A stretch of DNA of 64,000 nucleotides from positions 1,180,001 through 1,244,000 of the forward strand of contig NW_024704742.1 in the NCBI RefSeq assembly GCF_018977255.1, read 5' to 3'. This document shows, piece by piece, positions 1-27,200 of this stretch. The notes under the pieces are model-generated. The model was not told the origin of the DNA, did no database searches, and saw only the letters and a program-made list of their open reading frames with translations. The position numbers and the translations under genes are program-made. Source of the stretch: Callorhinchus milii (Eukaryota). How positions within the stretch are numbered: position 1 is the first letter of the stretch; each line of letters begins with the position of its first letter.

Positions 1-66
1 CAGTAATCGGATGTTTTGTCAAGGATGTTTTGGCCACTCAACAGATAACTGACTGTGAATATTTAC

Positions 67-6000: not shown

Positions 6001-9000
6001 TACTGTACATTGGCACAAATAACCCAGCGTTATAATAATAATAATAATCCTTGCATTTGATATCGCGCTTTTCACGTCAGGAGGACGTCCCAAAGCGCTT
6101 CACAGAACACACTGTAAAGTGAATTGACTGTATATTTGTGGGCGAACGCGGCAGCCAATTGCGCACAGCAATGTCCCACAAACAGTCGTGGATTGAAAAT
6201 GACCAATTTATTATTGTTTGGTTTTGGAGGGATTATCATTAGGCTCTGTGTGGAGTAAGGAAACTTGCCCAAGGTTTCGCCCTCTGCCTGGAATTGAACC
6301 CAGGTGTCTCGCTTGCAAAGGCAAGTGCTCTAACCACTGAGCTTCAGGACTCCACAAATAACAGCAATAGGATGTTGCTTGTCCTCTGTGATTCGCCAAA
6401 CAGTACATTTCTAATCTCAGTGGGACTATCAGTCCTTAACCAACACTATCTTCTGGCGGGTGGGAGGTACGCGGAGAGCTAACTAGTCAGTATTTTACTC
6501 ATCGTTAGGTCGGCAATGAATGCTGCCACTGATGTTACTGAGACACTTTACTCATGAGCCTCATGTGCACACAGTCCAATTAGTCAGCGGGAACTTCTGC
6601 CTCTCAGCAACTGTGCGCTCTATACAGAACCGCCGTGTCCATGGCATAACGGGGTCCGACTCTGGAAGAACCATTTAGAATTTTCTTCTTGTACTTTCTA
6701 TCCATTTTTGTGGATACGTGTTGGTGTAAAATGGCTGATTTTAACCCACCGTTTTTAGGCTAAATCGCTTTGTGACCTCCGTCCTGGAAACCCTTTACTG
6801 CGCTAAGGCAGGAAAACAAAACTGTTCTCATCTTAGAAGCACAGTATTTGGTTCAGATTTCTAACTTAGTAGGGACTCAAATCTCAATACACTTTTTGAC
6901 AAATAATAACTAATATTTGCATTTGATATTGCAGGAATTATTATTATTATTATTATTATTTTCATCACCCCGTCGAGACATCTCAAAGCGCTTCACGGAA
7001 TATACTGTAGATTGAATTGACTGTGCATTTTGTCGCCGAATTTTGTACGTGATAAACGTACCTTTGTCAGCAGTGCGGTGTGTTCACCCCCACAAGCGAT
7101 GTACGTGACATTGAGACTCAGACGCTTGAGTGGAGTTACTGAACGTGGAGTAAATGTTTCTGTCAAAACAGTAATTTTGTTGGAATTAGTAACTTGTCCT
7201 GCAAAAAATATCAACAGTTGAGTATCAATAGATAGAGAAACGTGCATTGCTCCGCGCTCCGCTGCGCTCTACCAAACCATCCCGAGCAGGGAAGGCGGGA
7301 GGGAATTGACGAAATGTGTCTTACTCACTCTCTGTGTTGCTGAGCCCCAGTTGTCCACAATTGTTGTTTCCCCAACTAAACACTGCCCCCGAGAGAGACA
7401 AAGCAAAGCTGTGCGCTCCTCCGGCAGCGATCTGAGCCAACGGTATCCCCGACAGAGACGCCACGAGGTTGGGACTCAACTGTGAGTAAAACATTCCACC
7501 GAGACCCAACTGCCCGTAACTATTCTGTCCCCAGGAATAGAGTGCGCCATCTGGAAAACATCATTCAAACATTTTGTAGAGGTTGACAATGCAATTTACC
7601 TTGTGTCTTTCACATCCCTTTGGGGTGGGAGGGGGGTATGGGAGAGTGGCTGTGGGGGTGGAAGGTGGAGGGAGAAATGACCAAAACCACGAACAAAGTG
7701 ATAAATCTGGAGGCGGTGTATGAAAGTGAGGAGGCAGGGCTGGGCCAGTCGGAGGGGCTCCTGGAATGGAGTGCAGAATGCCTTGAAGCTTGCCCGCTGA
7801 TGGTGGACAGTATGGGGGGGTGGTGGGGTGGGGGGGAGGGGGAGGAGACATGTTGCAGGCACAGGTTCGTGGAGCTGGATTGGTAGGGTTGCTGCTGATC
7901 ACAGAGGTTAGGCCATGAGGGTTCGAACACGAGGTCGAGGATGTTGAGTTTGGTTTGTTGGAGGATGAGGACCGGGGCGACGGACTCGCAGGGCATGATG
8001 CGAAAGAGGCCTGGGGTGCAGAGCCCTACACCTCGTGTGGGGAGACCAGCGATAATGCGTGCGACTTGTCGTCTTTCAGGTGACAATTAATGAATTACCT
8101 TCACAGAGAGCAAGAGAGTGGTAATGGCCGCAAGCAACCTGCTGAATCGGAACTCCGAAAGAATTTATTTCCCTGTAAGGCAACAGAAACTCCGAGAAGT
8201 GAGTTCAGAAAACACTCCTTCACACCAATGACATGAAATACACTGCCCAGAAGGCAGGGGGTGGATTTGGTGGGGTGAAGACTTAAAGGATATGGAGAAA
8301 ATGCAGGGAATGGAATTAAAAGTCTGCCACTGATTGACCTCCTGTTCCCTTATTCCCAATATAACGATAACACCTGCATTTGATACAGTGCATTTCACAT
8401 CTCAAAGTGCTTCATAGGATTTGCGGTAAAGTGTAGGAACTGTGCATTTTGTAGGCAAAACAATGCAGACAATTTTGCCGTGAAGCAAATTACCAATCCT
8501 AATTGGGGTATTGTTGGGGTAAAATAACAGCACGTAGAGACGGCAATTAACTCATATTTGTACCTTGGAAGCGAAACACTAACTTCACAATTGCCGTCGC
8601 CCAGTTGTCCATAGGTCCCGGCTCCCCAGGCGAAAACATTTCCCTTTTCGCAAATAGCCAAGGTATGATGTTCACCGCAAGCTACACGAGCAACTTTCGG
8701 TATACCTTGCACCGTCATTCGCTCTGTAAGAATAAGTGGCAGACCCGTGTCATTCCACGTTCATGAACCGCACTACACAAAAACCGCACTGATGTATGAT
8801 CAGCATCAGCATCCAAAGCAATACACTCTACAGAAATCATGGACGTGAGGAGGTTTACCAATTGTGATCCTATTTTGATCATGCTTAGTGCGACTTACTG
8901 ACAATGGATCAATAAATGTATATATTTCAAATACTATAGGAGCCCCTGCCCTTGAAACCTATCAGTGTACTGCAGGTAGAGACGATATTGTGCGCTATAT

Positions 9001-12000
9001 TAACCAATAGCAATCGCAAAAAATCAAAAATGTAAGTTTTGACTTTAAACATTACGACTGTAAAAACATCTGGAGCAAATAACCAGAGAGTAATGGACGT
9101 TTTCAAAATTATAATTAATCTGATAGGGTTAATAGAGAAGGGCTATTTCGACTAATGGATCAACAGATGTGGCAAGAGAAAAAATTAATCCTTTCATTTA
9201 ACATCTTATCACACCGTCAAACATCTCGAGTGGGAGATTGGGTGCCCTGATCTTGACAAGGAATTCACTATAAAACACTTCCCATCCTGCCTATGTAATG
9301 CAGCTTCGATCAGGAGACTGATGGAATTAATCAAGCATTTGATGTAACATTTGATGAATTGGATCTCAAGGTGACAAATGACACTCTGTCTAATCTGTGA
9401 CCAGGGCTCCCTCTGTCTCCTCGTCCTCCTCGATCCCTCTGCCTTCCTTTGACACTGTGGACCACTCTATCCTCCTCCACCGCCTCTCCTCTCACCTCAA
9501 CCTTTAAGGTTTTGTCCTTGAATGGTTCAGATCTTTATCTCTCACACCGATTCCACTTTGTCTCCACAAATGGCTTGTCCTCCAGCCCCCCCACCGTCTC
9601 ATGCGACGTTCCTCAGGGCTCTGTCCTGGGTCATCTCCTCTTCAACCTGTACATGCTCCCTCTTAGTGACATCATCCACATACATGGGGTCAACTTCCAC
9701 ATGTACGCAGATGACACCCAACTGTACCTCTCTGCCTCCACCCTCGACCACAGGACCCACTGCTGTCCTGACAGAATGTCTGTCTGACATCAAGTCCTGG
9801 ATGAGAGCCAACTTTCTACAGTTGAACGTCAATGAGTCCGAGGCTCTCCTGATCGGCTCCCATCAGTGCCTCCTCGTCTCAGGCGCTGACAGCATCACCA
9901 CCCATGGTTGCACACTCCACCTCACCAAACCAGTCAGGAACCTGGGCTTGTTGTTCAACCCTCAACTGTCCTTTCTCCCCCATATCCATGCCATGATCCG
10001 CTCTGCCTTCCCCCACTTCTGCAAGATCACCCGGCTCCGCCACTGCCTGACCCCGCAGACCGCCGAAACTCTCATACATGCCTTCGTTACAACCAGGCTT
10101 GACTGTGCCAACTCCCTGCTTGTCAGCCTTGCCAACGCTTCCCTCCACAAGCTGCAGATCATCCAGAACTCTGTAGCTCGTGTTCTCTCTGTTCAAAATC
10201 CTTGTCCTCCTACCTCGCCGATCTGCTAAGCCCTTATCAACCTGTCTTCTCCCTCCGCTCAGCAGGCTCTGGCCTGCTCCATGTCCCCCACCCGGCCCAC
10301 CCCACCATCGTCGATCGGGCCTTCAGCCTCTCTGCCCCCACCCTCTGGAAATCCATCCCACATTCCCTTCGCTTTGCTCCCTCCGTTGCCTCCTTCAAGG
10401 TATTCCCTCAAGACCCTCTTCTTTGTCCGTGCCTTCAGCCACCCTCGTACCCTCTCTGCCTTCCACCCTCCCTAATCCCACCCCACTACTCCTCCCTCCA
10501 CCCCCCCCACGCACACCCTCAGCTTGGGTTCTAATCCCCGACATGTTCAGGGCCTTGGAACGTGTCAACAAATTGGACGCTTTCGTTTTCTTTTTTTTTA
10601 AGAAAAAACAGGCTATAACGTCACTGCAATAAACTGAAGGCAACATCTTTTCTCCTGATTAAACCCTCCTCGACTGTCCAGGGACTTGGGCCGTACGCCT
10701 GACGTGAAAGGCGCAATACAAAATGTAGTTCGTTGTTGGTGTCGCAGTAGTAGTAGCTGTTGTTGTTGTTGTTGTGGTTGGTTGGTTGGTTGGTTGGTTG
10801 GTTGCTGTTGTAGCAGTTTAGGTTTGGATCAGAGGAAGGAGACCTGCGAATTTAGTGGCATTCTCCTGCTTCGAAATCCTTCGAAATGTCCTCAATTTCT
10901 AGGTTTGGTAATAACACTTTTCTGGTGGGGGTGTGGCGGTGCGTGGTGGGGGGGGGTGGGGGGTGGCGGTGTGTGGTGGGGGGGGTGGGGGGTGGCGGTG
11001 TGTGGTGGGGGGGGGTGGGGGTGGCGGTGGGTGGCAGTGGGGGGTGGGGGGGGTGGCGGTGGGTGATGGGGGGGGTGGGGGTTGGCAGTGGGTGGCAGTG
11101 GGGGGTGGGGGGGGTGGCGGTGGGGGGTGGGGGGGTGGGGGGGGATGGTAGTGGGTAGCAGTGGGGGGTGGGGGGGGGTGTAGGGTGTAAGGGACCAAGC
11201 TGAGAACAACCTGATATATATATATATACACCTGACTGCTCTCTTGGTGGTTGAGACTGATGACCAGTTATATATATTTTGGGGGGGGGGGGGGGGTGGG
11301 GGCTGGAAAAAACCCCTCCAGGCTGTTCCTGAAAGTGAAACCAACTGAGAGAGAGAGAGGAAACGAAACAACAACTGAGTGAAAAGAAAGTGCAACGTGT
11401 GAGTGAGTGTCCAAACACCACCACCACCACAACCCAACCACCAGAGCAGAGATACAGAGCCCCACTGGACACCTGGACAATGATGGGAGACTTGTGTCAG
11501 GAACATTGCCCCCATTCCCATTCCCACCCCTCCCAGGGAAGAAAATGCCCCCAAAAAACACAGCAACAGCAACACCCAGTGCCTTAAGTCAGAAAACACT
11601 CACGATGTCTCTCACTCTCTTTCTATTCTTTCTATCTCTCTCTCTGTCTATCTCTCTCCCTCTCTCTCCACACACACACACACATATATATCGTTTGGGA
11701 TTAATTTGTTTTAAACCCTCTCCACCCCCCAATAAAAATAAATAAATAAATAATCAGGGGCTTTTTTTTAATATAATAAATCAACTCTTTAAATCAACAA
11801 TAAATAAATAAATTCATAAGTCAATCAATGAACCACAAGCCCCAAAATCCACATTAATCACATTAAAAAACTCATTAACAAGTGGGTGGGTTGGGGTGTG
11901 GGGTGTGGGGTGTGGGTATCTTCTCCCCCAAACCCACCCCACCCCACTCACCCCCCCCCCCCCCCCCAGAGAGTTGTGTGTGTGTGTGGGATGGGGGATG

Positions 12001-12248
12001 GGGGTGGGAGGGGGTCCCTTACCTGTGGCAGATGTCCTCACTGCCCTCCCCCCCAGCTGTCCAGGCTGGTGGTGGTCTCCTGGGGAGAGGAGGGTCCCGT
12101 CTCCCAGCAGGAACACCCAATGTCGGGCTCCGCAAGCCACCGCCCGCACCGCCTGCGCCCCCGACAGGTCCATCGCCACCGGGGCTGCCAGGGCTCCATC
12201 TGCCCCGCACCCCAGGAGGGGCTCCACCCCGTGTCCCCAACAATACAT
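67..12248 (-). CDS. Small HERC E3 ligase, HERC5/HERC6-like paralog; 5' part only (11 coding exons, 472 codons), continues beyond the window start
   Basis: Minus-strand exons with AG/GT boundaries: 12248-12023 (MYCWGHG...VACGARH...GQLG), 8723-8564 ([29 protein letters not shown]), 8172-8099 ([16 protein letters not shown]), 7550-7329 ([13 protein letters not shown]...[27 protein letters not shown]), 7159-7062 ([13 protein letters not shown]), 5561-5434 ([16 protein letters not shown]...VSQIACG), 4749-4604 ([17 protein letters not shown]), 3440-3367 ([12 protein letters not shown]), 2390-2275 ([25 protein letters not shown]), 1488-1423 ([19 protein letters not shown]), 172-67 ([22 protein letters not shown]). 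The spliced frame is open and the phases equal those of HERC3 exons 1-11. The IFAG..A.F, IFSS..CL.ASFLK and AR..F.KLT.K.WIS motifs resemble the HERC5/6 branch. Exact orthology is unresolved. Confidence 0.88.
1622..2046 (+). mobile_element. L2 LINE 3' end
   Basis: [10 protein letters not shown]...[19 protein letters not shown], followed by the tail AGCGCTCTGAGACG...GGCGCTATATAAGTGCAAGTTGTTGTT. Confidence 0.75.
2935..3300 (-). mobile_element. tRNA-derived SINE, full length (long subfamily)
   Basis: Head GGAGTCCTGTAGCTCAGTGGTTAGAGCAC (A box) with a degenerate B box; L2-like tail; (ATT)n end. Confidence 0.85.
6032..6353 (-). mobile_element. tRNA-derived SINE, full length (short subfamily)
   Basis: A box and B box (GGTTCAATTCC); near-identical to the copy at 59151-59470. 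Confidence 0.9.
7690..8062 (-). mobile_element. L2 LINE fragment
   Basis: The reverse complement reads like the PHTRGRALH...[12 protein letters not shown] linker region of L2 ORF2; degenerate. Confidence 0.45.
9380..10450 (+). mobile_element. L2-clade LINE fragment (reverse transcriptase and 3' region), frameshifted
   Basis: Translates to [19 protein letters not shown]...[54 protein letters not shown] and [11 protein letters not shown]. Confidence 0.9.
10925..11182. repeat. G-rich low-complexity tract (GGGGGTGGCGGT-like), G-quadruplex-prone on the + strand
   Basis: Dozens of G-runs of 3 or more separated by 1-5 nt loops. Confidence 0.85.
11331..11391. promoter_or_regulatory. ISRE/IRF-element cluster in intron 1 of the HERC5/6-like gene
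   Basis: GAAAGTGAAACC (11331-11342), GAAACGAAAC (11360-11369) and GAAAAGAAAGT (11381-11391) match GAAA-N1/2-GAAA. Confidence 0.6.
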
Positions 12249-12294
12249 GTCCACCCAGTGGGAGAGCCCTGACCGGCTGTGTCCAGGCTGCCCC

Positions 12295-12594
12295 CGGCTC
12301 GGGCTCGGGCTCGGGCTCGGGCTCTGGTTCGGGACTCGGGCTCGGGCTCTGGTTCGGGGCTCTGGCTCTGGCTCGGGGCTCTGGCTCTGGCTCTGGCTCG
12401 GGGCTCTGGCTCTGGCTCGGGGCTCTGGCTCGGGGCTCGGGCTCTGGCTCGGGCTCGGGCTGGGGCTCTGGCTCGGGCTCGGGCTCGGGCTCTGGCTCGG
12501 GCTCTGGCTCGGGGCTCTGGCTCTGGCTCGGGGCTCTGGCTCTGGTTCGGGGCTCTGGCTCTGGCTCTGGCTCTGGTTCGGGCTCTGGCTCTGG
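12295..12594. repeat. Hexamer repeat (GGCTCG/GGCTCT)n just upstream of the HERC5/6-like start codon
   Basis: Directly visible degenerate 6-bp tandem repeat; it generates the PEPEPE/ARARAR/SQSP ORFs. Confidence 0.9.
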
Positions 12595-12639
12595 ATGAAT
12601 GGGTTGTGTTGCTCTTCGTGTTCTGCTGTTCCACTCCAT

Positions 12640-12650
12640 CTCATTGGCTC
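12640..12650 (-). promoter_or_regulatory. CCAAT (NF-Y) box upstream of the HERC5/6-like gene
   Basis: The minus strand reads GAGCCAATGAG, a close fit to the NF-Y consensus, about 400 bp upstream of the ATG at 12248. Confidence 0.4.
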
Positions 12651-12744
12651 CAAACTCCAGGTTCCCACCCACAGCACAGCCCAGAAACCACAGCCCAGAA
12701 ACCACAGCCCAACACTGTCACCACTGTAACTGTTATCATGGCAC

Positions 12745-13100
12745 AATATTATTACTATTGTTACTAAGCTATAATATCATTATTATTATTATTATCATTA
12801 TTATTATGGTATAATATCATTATTATTATAATATCATTATTGTTATTATAATATCATTATTATTATGGTATAATATTATTATTACCGTATAATATCATTA
12901 TTATTATTATGGTATAATATTATTATGGTATATTATTATTGCTTTATATTATTATTATAATTATGTATTATTATTATATATTATTATTATATGTTATTAT
13001 TACCATTATTATACATTGTTATACATTATTATATATTATTGTTATATATTATTGTTATATATTATTGTTATATATTATGATGACGGTATATTATTATATA
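12745..13100. repeat. AT-rich (ATT)n-derived low-complexity tract
   Basis: Directly visible. Confidence 0.9.
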
Positions 13101-13178
13101 TAGTGATAACTGGTGACGGTCACTATGTTACATGTTGTACTGTTGTGGATTTCAGAGCCACAAACCCCTGAAGCCCTC

Positions 13179-16100
13179 CTGTGACTGACAGCTCAGGCCA
13201 CGCCCCCAGGGCTGTGATTGACAGCTCAGGCCACGCCCCCAGGGCTGTGATTGACAGCTCAGGCCACGCCCCCCAGGGCTGTGACTGACAGCTCAGGCCA
13301 CGCCCCCCAGGACTGTGATTGACAGCTCAGGCCACGCCCTCCCCCCAGGGCTGTGACTGACAGCTCAGGCCACGCCCTCCCCCCAGGGCTGTGACTGACA
13401 GCTCAGGCCACGCCCTCCCCCCAGGGCTGTGACTGACAGCTCAGGCCACGCCCTCCCCCCAGGGCTGTGACTGACAGCTCAGACCACGCCCCCCCAGGGC
13501 TGTGACTGACAGCTCAGGCCACGCCCCCCAGGGCTGTGACTGACAGCTCAGGCCACGCCCCCCAGGGTTGTGACTGACAGCTCAGGCCACGCCCCCCAGG
13601 GCTGTGACTGACAGCTCAGGCCACGCCCTCCCCCCAGGGCTGTGACTGACAGCTCAGGCCACGCCCTCCCCCCAGGGCTGTGACTGACAGCTCAGGCAAC
13701 GCCCTCCGCCCAGGACTGTGATTGACAGCTCAAGCCACGCCCCCCAGGGCTGTGACTGACAGCTCAGGCCACGCCCTCCGCCCAGGACTGTGATTGACAG
13801 CTCAAGCCACGCCCCCCCAGGGCTGTGACTGACAGCTAAGGCCACGCCCTCCCCCCAGGGCTGTGACTGACAGCTCAGGCCACGCCCTCCCCCCAGGGCT
13901 ATGACTGACAGCTCAGGCCACGCCCTCCCCCCAGGGCTGTGACTGACAGGTCAGGCCACGCCCCCCCACGGCTGTGACTGACAGCTCAGGCCACGCCCTC
14001 CCCCCAGGGCTGTGACTGACAGCTCAGGCCACGCCCCCCAGGGCTGTGACTGACAGCTCAGGCCACGCCCTCCCCCCAGGGCTGTGACTGACAGCTCAGA
14101 CCACGCCCCCCCCAGGGCTGTGACTGACAGCTCAGGCTACGCCCCCCCCAGGGCTGTGACTGACAGCTCAGGCCACGCCCCCCAGGGCTGTGACTGACAG
14201 CTCAGGACACGCCCCCCAGGGCTGTGACTGACAGCTCAGGCCACGCCCCCCAGGGTTGTGACTGACAGCTCAGGCCACGCCCCCAGGGCTGTGACTGACA
14301 GCTCAGGCCACGCCCCCAGGGCTGTGACTGACAGCTCAGGCCACGCCCTCCCCCCAGGGCTGTGACTGACAGGTCAGGCAACGCCCCTCCCAGGGCTGTG
14401 ACTGACAGCTCAGGCCACGCCCTCCGCCCAGGACTGTGATTGACAGCTCAAGCCACGCCCCCCCAGGGCTGTGACTGACAGCTCAGGCCACGCCTTACCC
14501 CCCAGGGCTGTGACTGACAGCTCAGGCCACGCCCTCCCCCAGTGCTGTGACTGACAGCTCAGGCCACGCCCTCCCAGGGCTGTGACTGGCAGCTCAGGCC
14601 ACGCCCCCCCAGGGCTGTGACTGACACCTCAGGCCACGCCCTCCCCCAGGGCTGTGATTGACAGCTCAGGCCACGCCCTCCCCCAGGGCTGTGACTGACA
14701 GCTCAGGCCACGCCCTCCCCAGGGCTGTGACTGACAGCTCAGGCCACGCCCTCCCAGGGCTGTGACTGGCAGCTCAGGCCACGCCCCCCAGGGCTGTGAC
14801 TGACACCTCAGGCCACGCCCTCCCCCAGGGCTGTGATTGACAGCTCAAGTCACGCCCCCCAGGGCTGTGACTGACAGCTCAGGCCACGCCCTCCCCTCAG
14901 GGCTGTGACTGACAGGTCAGGCAACGCCCCTCCCCCCAGGGCTGTGACTGACAGCTCAGGCCACGCCCTCACCCCAGTGCTGTGACTGACAGCTCAGGCC
15001 ACGCCCTCCCAGGGCTGTGACTGGCAGCTCAGGCCACGCCCCCCAGGGCTGTGACTGACAGCTCAGGCCACGCCCTCCCCCAGGGCTGTGACTGACAGCT
15101 CAGCCACGCCCCCACAGGGCTGTGACTGACAGCTCAGGCCACGCCCTCCCCCAGGGCTGTGACTGACAGCTCAGGCCACGCCCTCCCCCAGTGCTGTGAC
15201 TGACAGCTCAGGCCACGCCCTCCCAGGGCTGTGACTGGCAGCTCAGGCCACGCCCCCCCAGGGCTGTGACTGACACCTCAGGCCACGCCCTCCCCCAGGG
15301 CTGTGATTGACAGCTCAGGCCACGCCCTCCGCCCAGGACTGTGATTGACAGCTCAAGCCACGCCCCCCAGGGTTGTGACTGACAGCTCAGACCACGCCCT
15401 CCCCCCAGGGCTGTGACTGACAGGTCAGGCAACGCCCCTCCCAGGGCTGTGACTGACAGCTCAGGCCACGCCCTCCGCCCAGGACTGTGATTGACAGCTC
15501 AAGCCACGCCCCCCATGGCTGTGACTGACAGCTCAGGCCACGCCCTCCACCCAGGGCTGTGACTGACAGCTCAGGCCACGCCCTCACAGGGCTGTGACTG
15601 ACAGCTCAGGCCACGCCCTCCCCCCAGGGCTGTGACTGACAGCTCAGGCCACGCCCTCCCCCAGGGCTGTGACTGACAGCTCAGGCCACGCCCTCCCCGC
15701 AGGGCTGTGACTGACAGCTTAGGCCACGCCCTCCCACTAGGGCTTTGACTGACAGCTCAGGCCACGCCCTCCCCCCAGGGCTTTGACTGACAGCTCAGGC
15801 CACGCCCCCCCAGTGCTATGACTGACAGCTCAGGCCACGCCCCCCCAGGGCTGTGACTGACAGCTCAGACCACGCCCTCCCCCCACAGGGCTGTGACTGA
15901 CAGCTCAGGCCACGCCCCCCAGGGCTGTGACTGACAGCTCAGGCCACGCCCTCCGCCCAGAACTGTGATTGACAGCTCAAGCCACGCCCCCCCAGGGCTG
16001 TGACTGACAGCTCAGGACACGCCCTCCCCCCAGGGCTGTGACTGACAGCTCAGGCCACGCCCTCCCAGGGCTGTGACTGGCAGCTCAGGCCACGCCCCCA

Positions 16101-17861
16101 GGGCTGTGACTGACAGCTCAGGCCACGCCCTCCCCCCAGGGCTGTGACTGACAGCTCAGGCCACGCCCCACAAGGGCTGTGACTGACAGCTCAGGCCACG
16201 CCCCACAAGGGCTGTGACTGACAGCTCAGGCCACGCCCTCCCCCCAGGGCTGTGACTGACAGCTCAGGCCACGCCCTCCCAGGGCTGTGACTGGCAGCTC
16301 AGGCCACGCCCCCCAGGGCTGTGACTGACAGCTAAGGCCACGCCCTCCCACCAGGGCTGTGACTGACAGCTCAGGCCACGCCCCCCAGGGCTGTGACTGA
16401 CAGCTCAGGCCACGCCCTCCGCCCAGGACTGTGATTGACAGCTCAAGCCACGCCCCCCCAGGGCTGTGACTGACAGCTCAGGCCACGCCCTCCCCCAGGG
16501 CTGTGACTGACAGCTCAGGCCACGCCCTCCCAGGGCTGTGACTGGCAGCTCAGGCCACGCCTCCCAGGGCTGTGACTGACAGCTCAGGCCACGCCCTCCC
16601 CCCAGGGCTGTGACTGACAGCTCAGGCCACGCCCTCCCACTAGGGCTTTGACTGACAGCTCAGGCCACGCCCTCGCCCCAGGGCTGTGACTGACAGCTTA
16701 GGCCACGCCCTCCCACTAGGGCTTTGACTGACAGCTCAGGCCACGCCCTCCCCCAGGGCTGTGACTGACAGCTCAGGCCACGCCCTCCCCCCAGGGCTGT
16801 GACTGACAGCTCAGGCCACGCCCTCCCACTAGGGCTTTGACTGACAGCTCAGGCCACGCCCTCCCCCCAGGGCTGTGACTGACAGCTCAGGCCACGCCCC
16901 ACAAGGGCTGTGACTGACAGCTCAGGCCACGCCCCACAAGGGCTGTGACTGACAGCTCAGGCCACGCCCTCCCCCCAGGGCTGTGACTGACAGCTCAGGC
17001 CACGCCCTCCCAGGGCTGTGACTGGCAGCTCAGGCCACGCCCCCCAGGGCTGTGACTGACAGCTCAAGCCACGCCCCCCCAGGGCTGTGACTGACAGCTC
17101 AAGCCACGCCCTCCCCCCAGGGCTGTGACTGACAGCTCAGGCCACGCCCTCCCCCAGGGCTGTGACTGACAGCTCAGGCCACGCCCTCCCCCCAGGGCTG
17201 TGACTGACAGCTCAGGCCACGCCCTCCCAGGGCTGTGACTGGCAGCTCAGGCCACGCCTCCCAGGGCTGTGACTGACAGCTCAGGCCACGCCCTCCCCCC
17301 AGGGCTGTGACTGACAGCTCAGGCCACGCCCTCCCACTAGGGCTTTGACTGACAGCTCAGGCCACGCCCTCGCCCCAGGGCTGTGACTGACAGCTTAGGC
17401 CACGCCCTCCCACTAGGGCTTTGACTGACAGCTCAGGCCACGCCCTCCCCCAGGGCTGTGACTGACAGCTCAGGCCACGCCCTCCCCCCAGGGCTGTGAC
17501 TGACAGCTCAGGCCACGCCCTCCCACTAGGGCTTTGACTGACAGCTCAGGCCACGCCCTCCCCCCAGGGCTGTGACTGACAGCTCAGGCCACGCCCCACA
17601 AGGGCTGTGACTGACAGCTCAGGCCACGCCCTCCCCCCAGGGCTGTGACTGACAGCTCAGGCCACGCCCCCCCCAGGGCTGTGACTGACAGCTCAGGCCG
17701 CGCCCTACCCCCCAGGGCTGTGACTGACAGCTCAGGCCACGCCCCCCCAGGGCTGTGACTGACAGCTCAGGCCACGCCTCCCCCCAGGGCTGTGACTGAC
17801 AGCTCAGGCCACGCCCTCCCCCCAGGGCTGTGACTGACAGCTCAGGCCACGCCCCCCAGGG
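13179..17861. repeat. GC-rich minisatellite/VNTR, unit ~32-37 bp, consensus CAGGGCTGTGACTGACAGCTCAGGCCACGCCCTCCCCC, roughly 135-140 copies
   Basis: Directly visible tandem array; unit length varies in the C-tract. Copy number is estimated from length divided by unit size. Confidence 0.97.
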
Positions 17862-18090
17862 CCGTGGCTGACTGGCGGGGGGCGGGGCTGGCGTTGATTG
17901 GCGGGCGGGGCGGGGGCGGGGTGGGGCGGGGCGGGCGGTGATTGGCGGGCGGGGCGGGGGGCGGGGCTGGCGCTGATTGGCGGGCGGGGCGGGGCGGGCG
18001 GTGACGCAGTGAGAGCGGAGGCCCCGGAGCCGCGGTGGGCCCTGGAGTGCGGGTCCCGCCGCCCGTCTGAGAGGCCCCGAACACAGCACA
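17862..18090 (+). promoter_or_regulatory. CpG-island core promoter, likely for HERC3: three inverted CCAAT boxes, multiple GC boxes, CRE/ATF half-site
   Basis: ATTGG at 17897, 17941 and 17976, each followed by GGGCGGGG repeats; TGACG at 18002; very high CpG density; a donor-like CAG|GTAACT at 18310/18311 could end a non-coding first exon. Confidence 0.65.
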
Positions 18091-18094
18091 GCCC

Positions 18095-18273
18095 CCACCC
18101 CTCACACAGACCCTCACACACACCCTCACACACACCCTCACACACCCTCACACAGACCCTCACACACACCCTCACACAGACCCACACACACACACCACAC
18201 ACAGACCCTCACACACACCCTCACACAGACCCTCACACACACACACACACAGACCCTCACAGACCCTCACACA
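18095..18273. repeat. (CCCTCACACAGA)-like / CA-rich simple repeat
   Basis: Directly visible. Confidence 0.8.
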
Positions 18274-18357
18274 GAGGAGGGGTTTTCATTGTCATCGCTC
18301 CTGTGTTCAGGTAACTCGTCTGTTCCCGTAACTGTCCGGAGCCTCAACACCAATACA

Positions 18358-18718
18358 CTGTATATGTGTATATGTGTATATGTGTATATGTGTGTGTGTA
18401 TATGTGTGTGTATGTGTCTGTGTGTGTGTGTGTGTGTGTGTATGTGTGTGTATGTGTCTGTGTGTGTATATGTGTGTGTGTGTATGTGTGTGTATATGTG
18501 TGTGTGTGTGTGTATGTGTGTGTATATGTGTGTGTGTGTGTGTATGTGTGTGTATATGTGTGTGTGTGTGTGTATGTGTGTGTATATGTGTGTGTGTGTG
18601 TGTATGTGTGTGTGTATGTGTGTGTATATGTGTGTGTGTGTGTGTATGTGTGTGTGTATGTGTCTGTGTGTGTGTGTGTGTGTGTGTATGTGTGTGTATA
18701 TGTGTGTGTGTGTGTGTA

Positions 18719-18764
<46 letters not shown>

Positions 18765-18900
18765 TGTATATGTGTGTGTGTGTATGTGTGTGTATATGTG
18801 TGTGTGTGTATGTGTGTGTATATGTGTGTGTGTGTATGTGTGTGTATATGTGTGTGTGTGTATGTGTGTGTATATGTGTATGTGTATATATATATATATA
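18358..18900. repeat. Compound (TG)n/(TA)n microsatellite
   Basis: Directly visible; about 540 bp, almost entirely alternating purine-pyrimidine. Confidence 0.95.
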
Positions 18901-19157
18901 ACACATTGCGTTTATATATCACCTTTCACGTTGTGAGGACGTCCCAAAGTGTTGGACAGTGGAGGATGTGCGCGGGAGCTGCTGGGGGTCGGGATCAGAA
19001 AGGGTGACGATCGGGGAATACTACTACAAACAACAATAACAATAATAACGATCAATAAATAATATAAGAATAATATACAATATATATTATTTCTGGCATT
19101 GGATACGGCACTTACTCCCACCGCACTGCCCCAGCCGGTGGGAGGGGAATGATGATG

Positions 19158-19194
<37 letters not shown>

Positions 19195-20861
19195 TTAGTC
19201 CGGGCGTTTGATACGGTGCCTTGATCATGTCGTCAAGACGTCTCAAAGTGCTCCGCACGATTCACTGTGAAGCGGAGTGACTGTATTTTGTGGGCGAAAT
19301 GCGGCGTAACCGGCTCATTAATTGGAGCAAAGTATAAAATGTGTGTGTCTATATATTATATATGTATATGTACATATATATGTAATTGTTTTACAATTGA
19401 TTGCTCGCTCCATGGGCGCGCGTTTGTGGGACGTTGAAGTGCGCGAACCGGTTGCCGTGTTTCTGCCCATCTCTCCTGTGAAGCGCCTTCAGACGTCTCC
19501 ACGGTGCGAATTTTAAGCGCGTGAGCGGCTGCGTATCGAACGCAAAGGGTTGTTACTGTTCCACCGGGGTGCGGGGGTTAGAGTTGTGTTCGTGGTGGTG
19601 GTGGCGGCGGCGGTGGTTTGGGGGTGGGTGGGGTGGGGTGGGGTGGGGTGGGGGGTGCGTGTGGCGGTTACGGTTACGCGATGTCCGTGCTGGCGACGGG
19701 ACAGAGTGCAGAGTTGTCGATCCGGCGCTGGGTGTCGGATGCGGTTTGTGCGGCTCTTGTCGTCCTCCGGCTCAAGGTTTGGCGAGACATTGGCTCTCCT
19801 GCCCGGGCTCCCGTCAGGCGCCTCCTCACCGCGAGCCGTCTCCGCCACTGGAACCCCCCCCCGGTCCACGCTTCCGGCGCTCGGCCTCGCCAACTGCCCG
19901 CTCCCTGGACTTTCCCAACTCCTCCCTCCGCGAGCCGCGGGCTCGTCAGCACTCTGCAGCGCGTGCCCTCTCCCGCACCGGGCTCCGCGAGCCCATCGCG
20001 CCCGCTCTGGCCCGGCTCCTTTGGCCCCCCCCGTCCCTCGGGGAATCAGAGATAACTAAACGCTCGGTCTCACCTTCAGAGCCCTCCAGAGTCCTGCTCC
20101 CCCCCCACCCCCCCCACCCGCCGCCCCCCCACTACCTCTCCGGCCCCAGGTCAGCCTGTCCGCTCCCTCTGCTCGGTCTCGACACACGCGCACACACACG
20201 CGGACACACGCGCACGCACAGACGTTTGTACTCTCTTCCAAACTTATTCACTTTTAAGTCTCGCACACGATTCCCTTCTCGAAGCTGAATGATTGACCCC
20301 AACGTCGAGACCTCATTTGGGCTTTTCAAGCCTCAATATGGCTGTGTGTGACGTGCGATCATTTCCTGCTTCTCCGTTGAGAAAATGGCCCGTTCTGTTG
20401 TGTGTGTGTTCGCGGGACTTGTTGGGAGAACTAAACATCCCGGGACTCCATCCATTATTTAAGACTAACCTAAGAGGTGTACGAGTGCATTTGAAGGAAC
20501 TTGGCAAAGTAATTTGAAGACGTTGGAGGTGTTCGGTCGCGATAAATCAATTCCCTTTCGATTTTAAGATTGAACCTCTATCGGGAGATCATCCCTCGGC
20601 CCGACTGACGTCAGCCCTTAATGGGAGCAGTTTAGAGGCACGTAGTTTCACTCTCAATTCGTGATCTATTCTTTTGCTTTCTTCCCCGAAAGTTGAGACT
20701 GTCGACGGTGACTGTAAATGATCTGGAAATGCGCACAAGGCAGGTTTTACGGAAACGTTTCGGAGCGTGGGATGAGGACTGCGGGCTAAGGAGGTGCATT
20801 TCTGGCTTGTGCAGACCTGCCCCGCGGATCTGGAAGCTGCTGTTGGAGATTTTCCAATGTC

Positions 20862-21140
20862 TAATAATAATAATAATAATAATCCCTGCGTTTGACAGAG
20901 CTGCGTTGACACGTTCGAAGCGCTTCACGGAATATACCGTAAAGCGGATTGACTGTGTATTTTGTGGGCAGCCAATTGCGCGCAGCGGCGTCTCCCACGA
21001 ACAGTCGTGGATTGAGTCACCAAACTATTACTTTTTTTTTTTTAGGGGAGAGATTGTTATCCCCGGAGAGCGCTCTGCCAATCGAACTAACGACCGCCGG
21101 GGTTGGCACTTCCTGCTCGGCAAACCGAGGCGCAGCGGAG
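20862..21140 (-). mobile_element. tRNA-derived SINE, 5'-degenerate
   Basis: Body and tail are homologous to the other SINE copies; (ATT)n end. Confidence 0.7.
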
Positions 21141-21535
21141 CGAGGAAACTTGCCGGAGGTCTCAACACGCCCGAAGCTTTAGCTTTCGTTTGACATTCGT
21201 TCTTCAGATAGATTCACTCGTAGACCCCGCCATCTGCCGCGCGGCTTTCTTTTATCCGTGCGCAGGCCCCGGCAAGAATGGCTTTGCAGTGAGTGAGTCG
21301 CAGAGCAAAACGACCGCCGCGTTGTAACTTGCAAACTCGGCGTTGTTATTAAAACAGAAATTAGGCGAACCGAGCTGTTGGGGTTTGATATTACCTTCGG
21401 CTTGAAGCTGTGCTCGAGGCTGACATACCAGTGTGGCTCGTCATTGCAGCCCACGCCTTTTCGAGTTGAAAAGTAATGTCGTCGAGAGAGACCGAGAGAG
21501 AGAGAGAGAGAGAGAGAGAAATAATGGCATTGCGC

Positions 21536-21566
<31 letters not shown>

Positions 21567-22316
21567 GAAACCGATAACATATGGCCAGTCTTAAAAAGGT
21601 GTGTTCACACGCCAAGCGTCATATCTGCTGTGTTTCGGCGATGGTATTGCCCTTATCATCAGGACGTGAACGTTTCGAAAGACCTTTTAAAGCTTCCAGT
21701 TGAGCAATCTCCGAGCGCGCGCGCGCGTGTGTGTGTGTAAAAAAAAGAGAGGAAGGACTGAACGCACGGCGGATAAGCCACAAAACTATTGAGTGAAGGT
21801 CGAAAGTCATTGAAATTTGTACGTTAAGGACTCGTTACGGTTAATATTTGCCGCTTAAACGTAGCCGGGGGGTGGGGGGGGGGACTGAACCTCATTCGTA
21901 AGCTCGAGCGATTAGCCCCGTCCGCGCGGTTTTCTTGCCGAGCGCTACAAGCCGTGCACGAGTGTGATGGCGCGTGAGGGTAAAGACTTTCCCGCAGGTA
22001 CGTGAGCAGCGAAGCAAGCGAATACTGTGGCGATTACGACGTTTGGGAGTCGACAGATCTCCGGTCGCAGGGCCCAGGGTTTCTGTGTTCGTGGAACTCC
22101 GCGAACACCGCCAATCGGAACCGAATATTTCAGTCGGGAACGGGACGAAGCCTTCTCTGTTCTTGGAGGAGTTCGGACCCCCGCTTTAAACCGAGGGAGC
22201 GGGGAGGGCGCGGGGGTTGTCAGACTGTGACGCGCACCGCTCGGGTAACTCCTGCTCGAGACGGAATCGACTCTGCGAGTCCCCTTTGCTGGAAAAGACG
22301 ACGGCTGGATACGGAA

Positions 22317-22680
22317 AGGTTCTGCAGCCTTTCGGTTAAGAGCGCCCGCCTCGCGAGCGAAAGGACCTGGGTGCGATTCCCGGGCAGGGTGAAACCTTGG
22401 GCGAGTTCCCGTCCTCCACGCGCCTCTGTTCACCGAGCAGTCGGTAGGAACCTGGGCGTTAGTCGATGGTAGCGTCGCTTTCCGGGGGTAATAATCCCTT
22501 TTTTTTTAAAAAAAAGAAGAATTTGGTTACTCGATCCACGACTGTTTGCGGCACAGCGCTGTGCGCCGTTTGCTGCTGCGTTTCGCTCAAAAAAATATGC
22601 CGTCGATGTATCTTTTGTGAAGTGCTTCGAGGTGTCTCAACGACTTGATAAGGCGCTATTCCAGATGCAAGGATTATTAT
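22317..22680 (+). mobile_element. tRNA-derived SINE, diverged CpG-rich copy
   Basis: GGTTAAGAGCGCCCGCCTCGCGAGCG...GGTGCGATTCCCGGGCAGGGTGAAACCTTGGGC...GCAAGGATTATTAT. Confidence 0.8.
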
Positions 22681-24255
22681 AGTGGGGGTTACAAAAGTTG
22701 GAGAAATGGGATTGAAAGATCTGTCATGGCCTCATAAAATGATAATTAGACCAATTACTAAATTCCCTTCTTAAGCAGTTTCTTGTCTCCTTGTGGGAGA
22801 CAATATTATTAGTATAATTAACGCACATATCGGTATATCCTACCTGTTATTTAATTTGTTTCTAATTGTTCTTTTCTTATACCAATATATTAGCGGTCGT
22901 AGTGTATGTCCTTCTCCCGGATTATTGATTACAACAACAACTTGCACTTGCCCAGCGCCCTCCACGCAGTGCAGTGTCTCAGAGCGATTGAGACGCTACG
23001 CACAGCATTATTCTGTGCCGTTCCTGGTTTTTTTTTTTAAAAAAAAAGCAGCTTTCAGGCGGGATTTGTCGACGCTAACTCAAAAGTACCGAGTCAGTAA
23101 CAAAAGTCTTTTGTTTATTCAATAAAAATAATGGCCTCTCTGTGCCGGTTGCCGAGTACTAAAGTATCACAGTATGAAGAAGGCGGTTAAGAAAATAAGA
23201 AAGTGTAGAAAAGGAAAGGGCCTCTTATCGTAGAACTGCTCCACTCGCTATCTCTTGGGTGGGGGGGGGAAAGCAGTGCATAGATGATCCATGAACACTC
23301 GATGATTGATAGAGCAGAACTGCAGAATATTCATCATTCTCACATCACAGGTTATTTAACCCTGATCGCCTTTACTCTGCGGACAAAATTCCCCCTTCCC
23401 TCCTTTGCTGTGGCAGAGGGGACACTCCTATAGAGCCGATGGCGTGTTCGTTCGTTTCAGTCTGTCTGCACCTACCCCCAGCGATGCGTAACCGTACGAG
23501 TTCAGGCGAGGGGAGAGGTTAAACCGCAGAAAGTAAAAGGAATGCAGCTCTTTGGGGGGTAGTTTTACTGACCGGGATTCTCAGACAAAGCAGCAGGTTG
23601 TGGGGTTAACAATCGTTAACATTTGAGCTCATGAGCAAACTATCAACGATGGGGGCTTTGCGCTTTGCTTTTTAACCAACAGGTACAAATGACATTGCCG
23701 CAATTTTAATTTCACTCATCGCTGGTGGAGTGTTGCTGGTGCACATTATTTGCCTCACTTGCCTACGGAGCAATAATGATGAACCTTTGTTATTATATAC
23801 TATTAGTTATTTCCAGGTGGTGGTGCCGTTCTTTTGATTCTGCTATTTAACCTTTGGCTCTGCCTACCTGGTCATGAAGGGGGACGTTGATGTTTCAAAG
23901 GGAAGTTGAGTCTTTCTCCCAGTCAACCTGGGGTATACTCCGCTTCTCATTCAAATTTACCTCCAAATTTAAATGGATTGGCTGCTCCTCTCATTGGTTG
24001 CGGGCTGTTGCTCGTACAGATTACCCCTCACACTTTACCTATCTGAACAACATTCGCTTAACTTCTAATCAATTCTATTGAGGTGTCTTTTTTTTCATGA
24101 TAGGCGCTGTCTGTCTGCAAGTCAGTGTTGTATAGAGTAGACGACATTGGTTTCACCGACTAAACGCGCCTCTCCCTTCGCAGTCTTGTTTCTGTCTGGA
24201 TCAGATCGAACGCTCAGTAACTTTTGCTCTCTATTTTCAGATAAGATCGCCAACC

Positions 24256-27200
24256 ATGGGTGCCAGAGTAGAGTTGTTGTGTTGGGGATATACCAATTTG
24301 GGACAGCTCGGTCTGGGCGATGTGGTTGAGAACATAATTGTTCAGCCGAGGACGTGTGAATTCTTCAGCAGTAAAAGCGTGCAGGAGGTGGCCTGCGGAA
24401 GATATCACACGGCATTCGTTTTGCAAGACGGAAGCGTCTATACGTGCGGCTCAAACAACTGGGGACAGCTGGGTCACGAAAAGGAAGGATACAGGCCAGG
24501 TAAATGATCATCTAGACCTCTGCTCAGCCGTTTTGTATCTGCTGACATTTTTTCGTCCACGCTGTTCTTCAGGGTGTGAAAGTGCTGGGGACGTGCGGAC
24601 CCTGTAATGTGTCTGTTTAGAACCGGCCTCGTTAAACTCTGAAGATAAGAAAGACTCGCAGCAGTTACGATGGTCCTGAGATCTTTGTCTGGTCCAGATC
24701 ATCAGGCAGATCGTTGTTTCTGGTTTACGTGGAGGCACTCGAGGCACATTGCTGGAAACCGAGAAACCCTTCTGTAATAATAATAATAATAATAATAATG
24801 GTTCTGTACCCACTTCAGCTCCCACCCCCCAGTTCTGGTGCAAAGCTATTATTGGGTCTTCCTCCCAGTGTGAAAAACACTATATCTTCTTAAATCTGGA
24901 ATGTTGCTCTGTGATGGAAATGTGTGCGAAAGACAGAACAGCTCCGCGACCAAACCAGGAATGTTTTTTTTCCTGATACATAGGGTTGAAAATTACTGAA
25001 CGCGTCCTGGAGCTGAGACTTTGCCAGCAGACAGAGGTGCATATCCTTATCATTGATTTCCTGCTATCGATGATAATGATATCAGGAAATGTGCCGGAGA
25101 TGAGAAATGTGATTATAAAAACTGTATACGATGATCACCTAAAAGGTAAACCTGGCCGTCAAAATTCCCATCAATGTCTGGCCGGGAGTATGACACTTCC
25201 CCTTCTTCATCGGGAATCTGAAGTCAAGATGCTGGCGAGCCACAGACCATCAACCTGAAGTGGGTCGGGAGGGGAAGAGAGGTCTTGAGACAGCGGAGTG
25301 AGGGTGGGAGCGAGTTGGAGAGCGTGTGGGCAGATAGGCTGATGGTCGGGCGGGGAACACGAAGCAGGCCAGTGCTCGCCAAGCGAAAGGAAGTGGCTGG
25401 GTTCGATGCGGTGAGCTTTTCTCTGTTTTCCAGACCGGGTTTCACCCCGGTCGGTCACTTCCATCTCAGCTGGGTTTTTTTTTTAACGGAAAAATGCAAT
25501 TCAGGATTTATTTATTTTTAAAAAAGAACCAATTTTCTTTTTTACTTGTCCTCTCCCGTCGCAATTGCAACGAACAAAACGGGTCAAACTGACTGACTGG
25601 GTAAAGATTCTGTTGGGTTTTACGCCCGGCAGCTTCAGCACTTTCAGTCGCTAATGGGATTTCCCATTATAATCGACGCAGATCTGTGTGTGTGTGTCTG
25701 TAATGCTCAATGGAATGTGAACCCTGAGATTTTAACCAGCAGTTAAACCTGTTCTCATGCGCTTGTGACGTGGGTGCTTGAGTTACTTGGTTGGATCCGA
25801 CTGTAAAGTATGTAGCCCAAGATATTACTAAGGTGTCAGCTTAAGGTGTCTCAAGGTAAAGCACTTATAGGTCAATGCAACTCAAGTAAGCAGAAGTAAA
25901 GTCTCCGTGCCAGAGTCTAAAGATAGTTGAGGACAGACACTGTTATAATCTGCACTCAATCCCCTTCCCTGTCTTGAGAATTCAAGCTGTGGTTTGGTTG
26001 AAGATGACATATTGTACTTGCACTTTGTGCGTTACGTGTCACCTGGGGAAATGAGTCTGCCCTTAAACGAAGGTGTTTGCAGAATGAAAATATAACCCTT
26101 TGATCCTCGAGTGCAATGACTCGGTGACTTTCACTTTCAGCATCCGTGCAGACCGAGCGATAGTGCCGGATTACCGCAGTGTTTTGGTTTAAAAATAGTC
26201 ATCACATTTGTATTGTGATTTCAGAATTGATTGCTCCTCAGACAAACAGCAGTAATGGATTGCAGTGAAATACTAAGCTTGGTTCTATTGATTGAAATTA
26301 TGATAAACCTGCTGGTCACGAGGATTATGTCCGTTTTAAAACTGGTCTGATTTTTTTTTGCTTTGCTGACGGAATACAATCAAGAAGGTTCTTTAGCCCC
26401 ATTGGATCTCAACTTTCCAGAATACCCTATTGCCTTTCATCGAGTTGTTGCTTAATTGAGTCCAGAGACCTGAGCTCTGCTTTCCTTCCTGGTAACCTTT
26501 CCAGCTGTTTAATTATCTTCTGTAAAGAAGTACTTCCTGGAAAGGTTACCAGGAACTCACAGCCCTCTATCCTACTGCCCTTAACACCTGCATATTATAC
26601 TGCAGTACAGGGTAGGAGGGAGGGAGGGAGGGCATCCTAAAATATTGTTCTGAAACAAGTAGAATGGTATGATCTCAAATCTAATGTAATTTTAGGATAT
26701 AGCTGATTGGTAAACTGCTTAAACTTCCCTCTTGCAGAATATGTCAAACCAAGGTCCCGTCCCTTCCTGCCCGCCCAGGTGAATGCCAAACATCCCAATG
26801 GCACTACACACAAAGGGAGTCCCTTCTGGCGCCCCCGGCTGAGAATTCCCCCTAATAAAACTGGTAGCTCGCTCCGCCGATGGAGTGCGGTCCAAACTGA
26901 GGTCATTTGGAAAGATGGTTGCAGGACTTTCCTGCCCACGCAGACTGCCACGCCCGTCCACAAAACTCACGTCACATCTCCAGCTAGCTGGCCGGACAGG
27001 AATACTTGAGAAAGTCCCCTTTCAGAACCTGCTTTGCGTTCTTTTCGATCTGAGCAAAAATGTCAGCGCAGCGCTCATCCCAGCACTGCGTTGGAGCGTT
27101 GGCTTGGACTATGTGATTTCAACTCCCAACGTGGGCTTTGAACCCACAACCTTTTGACTCGGAGATGAGAGCGCTACCACTGAGCCAAGCTGACCCCCAA

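Follow-up and report, generated by a model that had tools for sequence, protein, structure and literature searches.

Introduction

Minisatellites with a variable number of tandem repeats (VNTRs) are reported to be enriched in human within 1 kb upstream of genes, with an expression link at 187 genes (PMC8096271). Tandem repeats restricted by MORC3 form another described system, in which the restricted clusters of SP/KLF motifs are predicted ones, enhancer activity being not demonstrated for them (PMC13373173). A third system is that of the DECA elements, where the composite of TALE (three-amino-acid-loop-extension) factors, NF-Y and Sp2 is described as requiring the arrangement GAnnGAC-11bp-CCAAT (10.64898/2026.02.16.706105). 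In this work we study a GC-rich minisatellite, called the array below, at 13179..17861 on the plus strand of a 64,000-nucleotide stretch of the elephant shark Callorhinchus milii (contig NW_024704742.1, positions 1,180,001 to 1,244,000 of the forward strand; this whole stretch is called the window). The array lies between HERC3 and a divergent gene of the HERC5/6 clade, and most of its units carry a decamer of the PBX-PREP/MEIS type together with a box of the SP/KLF type. A literature search, checked at the level of search listings, found no paper on this array or on a PBX-motif minisatellite. We propose that ordinary minisatellite turnover multiplied one PBX-PREP plus SP/KLF promoter element at its original site and that the extra copies have little effect, a proposal to which we give about an even chance of being correct.

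Anatomy and turnover of the array

The array as placed in the initial annotation is confirmed by two procedures. Tandem Repeats Finder (TRF) gives 128.7 copies of period 38 with 88% matches over 13179-17854, and parsing of the units at the decamer gives 129 anchors, with 128 complete intervals of 33-40 bp (mean 36.3, mode 38) that fall into 59 distinct types; the unit length of about 34 bp and the amplification of about 135-fold given at first are thus slightly off. In each unit the decamer is followed by a 5-nt spacer, then by the SP/KLF-type box, which contains one CpG, and lastly by a C-tract of variable length, in which the differences in unit length reside almost entirely. Since the length variation is confined to the C-tract, slippage alone explains the fixed spacing between decamer and box. 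A 24-nt core of the unit, searched with at most 3 mismatches, has 128 matches in the window, all of them in the array, and 0 in 100 shuffles. The units are arranged head to tail, are of minisatellite size and have their variants interspersed, as is characteristic of the class, and the array is real in the window.

The array also bears the marks of its own history. A block of 443 bp occurs exactly at 16492 and again at 17189, with an offset of 697 bp, giving a recent multi-unit duplication at 16492..17631 on the plus strand; this is the longest exact internal repeat in the 4.7-kb array. Other exact blocks are of 227 and 183 bp, with the offsets of the exact blocks being about 650-730 bp, and the variant classes are spread unevenly along the array. 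The exact blocks and the position-biased variants are ordinary minisatellite turnover and, occurring together, are hard to explain as stutter of the assembler.

Searches for other features gave negative results. The three-tier G-quadruplex pattern has 0 occurrences on the G-rich strand of the array, the Rfam search over 10500-24600 gives 0 matches, and the exact 24-nt core has 0 matches in metagenome and viral contigs, collections that are uninformative for a vertebrate repeat. From 7 to 13% of the words of 13100-18100 are present in 4 of the 24 listed sequencing runs, all of one study and with no RNA run listed among them. As words touching the flanks make up 16% of the distinct words of 13100-18100 and the words present in the runs may be such flank-touching ones, this share carries no information on array size or expression.

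Motifs in the repeat unit

The strict decamer TGAnTGACAG is present in 117 of the 129 units, and the pattern GA..G.C is kept in all 129. The decamer occurs as TGACTGACAG in 104 units, as TGATTGACAG in 13, as TGACTGGCAG in 9 and as TGACTGACAC in 3; outside the array the decamer has 0 occurrences in the window, and likewise TGACTGACAG, TGATTGACAG and TGACTGGCAG are found nowhere else in it. The SP/KLF-type box CCACGCCC is present in 116/129 units, the same number that agree with CC(C/A)C(G/A)CCC, and CCGCCC has only 7 occurrences in the array. Decamer and box are both present at fixed spacing in 112/129 units. When the commonest unit was shuffled 100,000 times with its dinucleotides preserved, the decamer appeared in 430 of the shuffles (its strict form in 70), the box in 5063 and both in 27, a figure that overstates the significance because the motifs were picked after the unit had been seen. 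Even allowing for this post hoc choice, a random unit would be unlikely to contain the pair.

The two assignments of the initial annotation, of the decamer to PBX-PKNOX/MEIS and of the box to KLF/SP, both fit the published consensus (PMC4395233, PMC6023610). The Prep1 consensus given for mouse embryonic stem (ES) cells is tGAxtGaCag, with TGATTGGCAG as a bound site (PMC4395233), and TGANTGACAG is another published form of the PBX-PREP consensus (PMC11325038). At the zebrafish Prep peaks obtained by chromatin immunoprecipitation with sequencing (ChIP-seq), the motif is TGATTGACAG and CC(C/A)C(G/A)CCC is likewise enriched (PMC6023610). The matching was made by consensus patterns rather than by matrices, so that the C at position 4 (104 copies) and the 12 rarer variants are unscored, and no paper with base frequencies at decamer position 4 was found in the literature search. 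The units are, at the level of consensus, true DECA and SP/KLF matches, that is, predicted sites.

Note also that CCAAT has 0 occurrences in the array. The GAnnGAC-11bp-CCAAT composite, searched on both strands with spacers of 9-13 bp, has one match in the window, at 3655, and none in the array or in the promoter region next to it. A CpG island has a ratio of observed to expected CpG above about 0.6. For the array this ratio is 0.27, and by this measure it is not a CpG island.

The HERC3 side of the array

The array passes by degrees into the region next to it. The last full unit, at 17831..17861 on the plus strand, precedes the first inverted CCAAT box by 66 bp and is, as judged by position, the candidate for the original single-copy promoter element. 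It is followed in register by a degenerate partial 130th unit at 17858..17874 (plus strand), with 9/12 matches when its first 5 bases, which are shared, are left aside (P about 1e-4). The continuity of the array with the CCAAT/GC region that had been claimed is thus upheld in this graded form, and the in-register degenerate unit suggests that the array grew in place.

The candidate HERC3 core promoter is located at 17875..18010 on the plus strand, with three inverted CCAAT boxes (17897, 17941 and 17976), multiple GC boxes and a CAGT near 18007 that we take to be initiator-like. The non-coding upstream exon of HERC3 follows, with its 3' part at 18244..18310 (plus strand) and its donor GT, at 18311, spliced onto an acceptor at 24241. 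The joint comes from run X7 (RNA by guess, depth 99), in which one contig has 62 letters before exon 2, the 30 letters shown matching 18276-18305 at 28/30. The GT..AG joint between exons 2 and 3 of HERC3 is found in 3/4 runs, again RNA by guess. The reads of 4 of the 24 runs were placed on 18930-27650, and contigs of this kind cannot give a start site. The end of the upstream exon (18310) is 449 bp from the array end, and since 17875-18010 combines its three inverted CCAAT boxes with numerous GC boxes, it is likely the HERC3 promoter. The CCAAT/GC region adjoining the array is therefore plausibly that promoter, the splice link being one contig. The coding exons, with RCC1 repeats and HECT, are at 24256..53580 on the plus strand and match XP_007900723.2 of C. 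milii, to which the first coding exon is identical and which maps exon by exon in tblastn.

Two likenesses between the unit and the promoter have to be given up. The modules of the promoter had been described as cousins of the unit; the best alignment score of the unit with 17862-18010 is 20, which 69% of the shuffled promoters (1000 in all) reach, and on the plus strand the GC boxes of the promoter are G-rich where the unit box is C-rich, which is the opposite orientation. The sequence TGACTGGC at 17869, taken earlier as a promoter module, belongs to the degenerate final unit and is shifted there by 4 bases from the register.

Some further observations concern this side of the locus. In the region 17875-18010, modules of CCAAT and GC box are themselves repeated in tandem in a degenerate form, for which TRF gives periods of 35 and 44, and a 12-bp repeat is found at 18099-18275 in the upstream exon. 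The locus has its main CpG island at 19001..23000 in HERC3 intron 1, with an observed/expected ratio of 0.87-1.39 in 500-bp bins; the island lies downstream of the CCAAT promoter region at a distance of about 1 kb, with a 530-bp TG/TA microsatellite in between. The contigs of the four runs on 18930-27650 have many single-site differences from the window, for example 9 in one 614-base piece, one of the differences being at 24344 in HERC3 exon 2, and polymorphism looks high.

The minus-strand gene of the HERC5/6 clade

The array is flanked, as annotated initially, by two divergent HERC genes. The one on the minus strand, at 1..12248 and running off the window start, encodes a small HERC with RCC1 repeats and HECT present (XP_042192337.1), the RefSeq model starting with MYCWG at 12248. 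It carries the database label 'HERC4', as do a shark and a sawfish relative. If these two are set aside, the named proteins closest to it are labelled HERC6 and come from turtle, gar and coelacanth. In two trees XP_042192337.1 is placed with HERC5/6 with clade support of 100, and its grouping with true HERC4 is rejected (p-AU, approximately unbiased test, 0.002). Both trees are quick searches, with no HERC7-labelled row and with one turtle row labelled HERC5 outside the clade. The label 'HERC4', for this protein and for the shark and sawfish relatives alike, is contradicted by the trees, which put all of them with HERC5/6. A correction follows, namely that the elephant-shark neighbour of HERC3 labelled 'HERC4' is of the HERC5/6 type and has a cluster of sites for interferon regulatory factors (IRFs). 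A sawfish model of 2045 residues (P0134) seems to join two small HERC proteins of different clades and is probably two neighbouring genes merged in annotation.

The IRF cluster consists of three IRF sites, of the type of interferon-stimulated response elements (ISREs), within 70 bp at 11331..11391 in intron 1 of the HERC5/6 gene; 0/300 shuffles had 3 sites in 70 bp. About 55 bp further on the minus strand there is a TATA-like stretch with a possible splice donor near 11232, and the gene could conceivably have an alternative inducible first exon. The paralog had been called probably interferon-inducible; the clade and the IRF cluster make this reading well founded as far as sequence goes, with the induction itself standing as a prediction. 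As to previous work on these genes, elephant-shark HERC5/6 is already listed in PMC10003058, an origin of HERC5/6 in cartilaginous fish is given there and PMC11277259 agrees, and extra HERC genes are called HERC3 copies in PMC6002735. In salmon, linked HERC paralogs are reported to be virus-induced and HERC3 not, fish HERC7 and HERC9 being virus-induced (PMC12234341).

A promoter that the HERC5/6 gene may have for itself is the candidate region at 12640..12711 on the minus strand, with a CCAAT box at 12643-12647 and, adjoining it, a 14-bp repeat of 2.6 copies at 12675-12711. The array had been placed between two promoters, which stands as a supported statement for the HERC3 side and as a candidate for this side. 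The 14-bp repeat contains two AACCACA stretches, which we take to be RUNX-type cores. Upstream of the annotated HERC5/6 start there is another ATG, near 12644, and between the two a hexamer repeat of 300 bp stands in frame at 12296-12594; it could either encode a Ser/Gln/Pro-rich extension or be 5' untranslated region (UTR). An AT-rich (TAT)n tract of about 350 bp at 12747..13101 separates the 5' region of this gene from the array. A bidirectional promoter has two divergent start sites within about 1 kb. From the upstream exon of HERC3 (18244-18310) to the paralog ATG at 12248, which is an ATG and not a start site, the distance is about 6 kb, and it is conceivable that transcription on the minus strand starts at the right edge of the array.

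Discussion

We explain the array as follows. A single upstream element of the HERC3 promoter, composed of a DECA site and an SP/KLF box, would have become the unit of a minisatellite. The amplification would then have taken place in situ, directed away from the promoter, by slippage and unequal exchange. The copies nearest to the promoter may still serve as the original element, while the other approximately 120 copies probably add little to the output of HERC3 or of the HERC5/6 gene, so that the size of the array would reflect repeat dynamics and not a selected device. The unit anatomy, the motif match, the in-register blending into the promoter side, the multi-unit duplications and the uneven variants are the observed basis of this explanation. 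That the extra copies add little is expected because large tandem motif clusters are mostly inaccessible or without effect on their neighbours. For about 1000 human SPI clusters with more than 15 motifs, only about 50 are described as accessible even without MORC3, and the restricted repeats are reported to lack general regulatory activity in human cells (PMC13373173); these base rates favour a small effect of added copies. Moreover, little is expected to be added to the HERC5/6 gene because its own CCAAT box and IRF cluster, outside the array, appear to be present.

Several observations weigh against this explanation. At the left edge of the array no significant degenerate unit is found (P 0.18). 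In the mouse ES-cell Prep1 peak table no peak is named at Herc3, the controls Fgf4 and Suv420h2 being present, so that an ancient promoter element is so far without support. At the unit CpG, neither TpG nor CpA is present as an allele among 127 units (the two excluded are the first one and one with a deletion), where a transition allele is present at 10/18 other C/G sites; the probability of this absence is 0.20 at equal rates and 0.008 at a threefold rate, and the 27 SINE-like matches (short interspersed elements) in the window have a CpG excess of 2.3-fold (43/352 vs 68/1284). The constrained positions of the decamer have 1 allele at 8 sites against 12 at the 12 sites of the spacer (p 0.013, or 0.039 with G/C sites only), with the site classes having been defined after the data were seen. 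As the genome is described as pervasively methylated outside start sites (PMC5437953) and CpG decay is absent here, methylation may be lacking from the array in germ-line cells, though its CpG ratio is 0.27. Taken together, the retained CpG and the few decamer-breaking alleles hint weakly at an unmethylated or selected array, both signals resting on about 20 alleles. In favour of our explanation, the SP/KLF core is not spared substitution, with 5 alleles at 7 sites. In the mouse Prep1 ES-cell data the knockout/wild-type ratio for Herc3 is 0.86 (adjusted p 0.089), and the seven supplementary files on zebrafish Prep contain no 'herc' gene names, a result that has no positive control and hence no weight.

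The roles of enhancer, transcription-factor sink and boundary suggested in the initial annotation are hypotheses. As one alternative, the array could be an open and unmethylated homotypic enhancer, with PBX-PREP and SP/KLF factors on many units and with the copy number tuning HERC3, the HERC5/6 gene or both. The presence of both motifs in 112 of the units and of GA..G.C in every one would fit with this, as would the co-occurrence of DECA and SP/KLF motifs reported at zebrafish Prep peaks (PMC6023610) and the more than 100 of 4849 human promoter repeats that are tied to expression or methylation (PMC4857002). The array is, however, without the NF-Y composite, and the signals amount to the small number of alleles given above, so that we regard such an enhancer as possible and rather unlikely.

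It may also be argued that the motif match is incidental, the array being a generic GC-rich, strand-skewed minisatellite beside a promoter in which two unbound motifs are spelled by chance. The SP/KLF match alone is found in 5% of shuffled units, the motifs were chosen after the unit was seen and from many possible pairs, the dominant decamer (104/129) is TGACTGACAG and not the zebrafish ChIP motif TGATTGACAG, and mouse Herc3 is without a named Prep1 peak. By contrast, both motifs together arise in only 27 of the 100,000 shuffles (430 for the decamer and 70 for its strict form), position 4 is an 'x' in the published consensus (PMC4395233), and the pair is a known co-occurring combination (PMC6023610). 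Thus a purely incidental match is unlikely.

Another explanation is a repressed element of the MORC3 type, in which the cluster would be closed at rest and would become a strong enhancer of the HERC5/6 gene on loss of the repressor, for example in infection. The array has more than 110 copies of the two motifs, where in the human element repression sets in beyond 15, and the repeats that are predicted to be restricted include clusters of SP/KLF motifs (PMC13373173). The neighbour belongs to the HERC5/6 clade, and the virus-induced fish genes are HERC7 and HERC9, not HERC3 (PMC12234341); moreover, CpG decay would not be required if the repression proceeds via DAXX and H3.3. However, only 2 human loci, both with SPI motifs, are described as having acted as repressed enhancers (PMC13373173), the GGAA core is present in none of the 59 unit types, the array touches the promoter of a gene with spliced contigs in 3/4 runs, and the HERC5/6 paralog has a conventional IRF cluster. 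We therefore consider this explanation quite unlikely. Very unlikely, too, is the most elaborate combination, namely a selected, unmethylated super-cluster of about 120 PBX-PREP and SP/KLF modules that a MORC3-like repressor would keep shut and that, once released by infection, would activate the antiviral gene of the HERC5/6 clade.

It is most improbable that the array acts as a boundary by which HERC3, as a constitutive gene, is protected against an interferon enhancer located in HERC5/6 intron 1. The array does lie between the IRF cluster (11331-11391) and the HERC3 promoter region, but this position is the whole of the support, and promoter specificity alone could generally explain separate regulation. 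Equally remote is the possibility that the assembly has inflated a far shorter repeat, for which the 443-bp exact duplicate could speak and against which stand the 59 types among 128 intervals, the position-biased variants and the absence of any exact repeat longer than 443 bp in 4.7 kb.

Comparison with known systems

With amplification in place of one promoter element as our explanation, the array is a clean natural case, of unusual size, in which a promoter element has become a minisatellite, and it is a ready substrate for relating motif number to activation or repression by TALE and SP/KLF factors. If instead it were a repressed or copy-number-tuned enhancer of the HERC5/6 gene, tandem motif clusters would control antiviral genes far outside mammals, and if it were a MORC3-like guard, the mammalian repeat-based guard of IFNB1 would be extended to another factor class, another immune gene and a lineage outside bony vertebrates.

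Like the promoter minisatellite VNTRs described in PMC8096271 and PMC4857002, the array consists of GC-rich tandem units directly upstream of a gene, with factor motifs and interspersed variant units; unlike them it is very long (4.7 kb, 129 units), belongs to a cartilaginous fish and is known here from one assembled sequence. With the MORC3-restricted tandem repeats, including the MORC3-regulated element of IFNB1 (IFNB1-MRE), it shares a dense homotypic cluster made by tandem amplification, the SP/KLF class and a neighbour of the antiviral type (PMC13373173). It has far more than the 15 homotypic motifs above which such elements are repressed; the SPI/PU.1 motifs of both proven elements are, by contrast, absent from it. 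The proven elements are described with 26 and 45 copies of these motifs and clusters with up to 61, and the IFNB1 element as lying about 100 kb from its gene (PMC13373173), whereas the elephant-shark array touches a promoter, has about twice the largest of these motif counts and has the TALE decamer in addition.

The likeness to the DECA and DECA-CCAAT elements of PBX-PREP, NF-Y and Sp2 is that the decamer fits tGAxtGaCag, that CC(C/A)C(G/A)CCC is near and that a promoter with several CCAAT boxes adjoins (PMC4395233; PMC6023610). By contrast, the GAnnGAC-11bp-CCAAT geometry is absent from both array and promoter, and the elements are described with single or few sites per promoter (10.64898/2026.02.16.706105; PMC6023610; PMC4395233), to be compared with a 129-fold array. 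As in the vertebrate HERC3-HERC5/6 cluster, HERC3 is closely linked to a paralog of the interferon type (PMC12234341, PMC10003058, PMC6002735); in the elephant shark the genes are, unlike there, head to head with the array between them, and the paralog label 'HERC4' conflicts with the tree. The array is, as judged from its letters, a minisatellite that is neither a DECA-CCAAT composite nor a CpG island, and its anatomy resembles that of a MORC3-restricted cluster without the SPI motifs. Within this known kind of repeat it is notable for its size and its neighbourhood, any regulatory role of it being putative.

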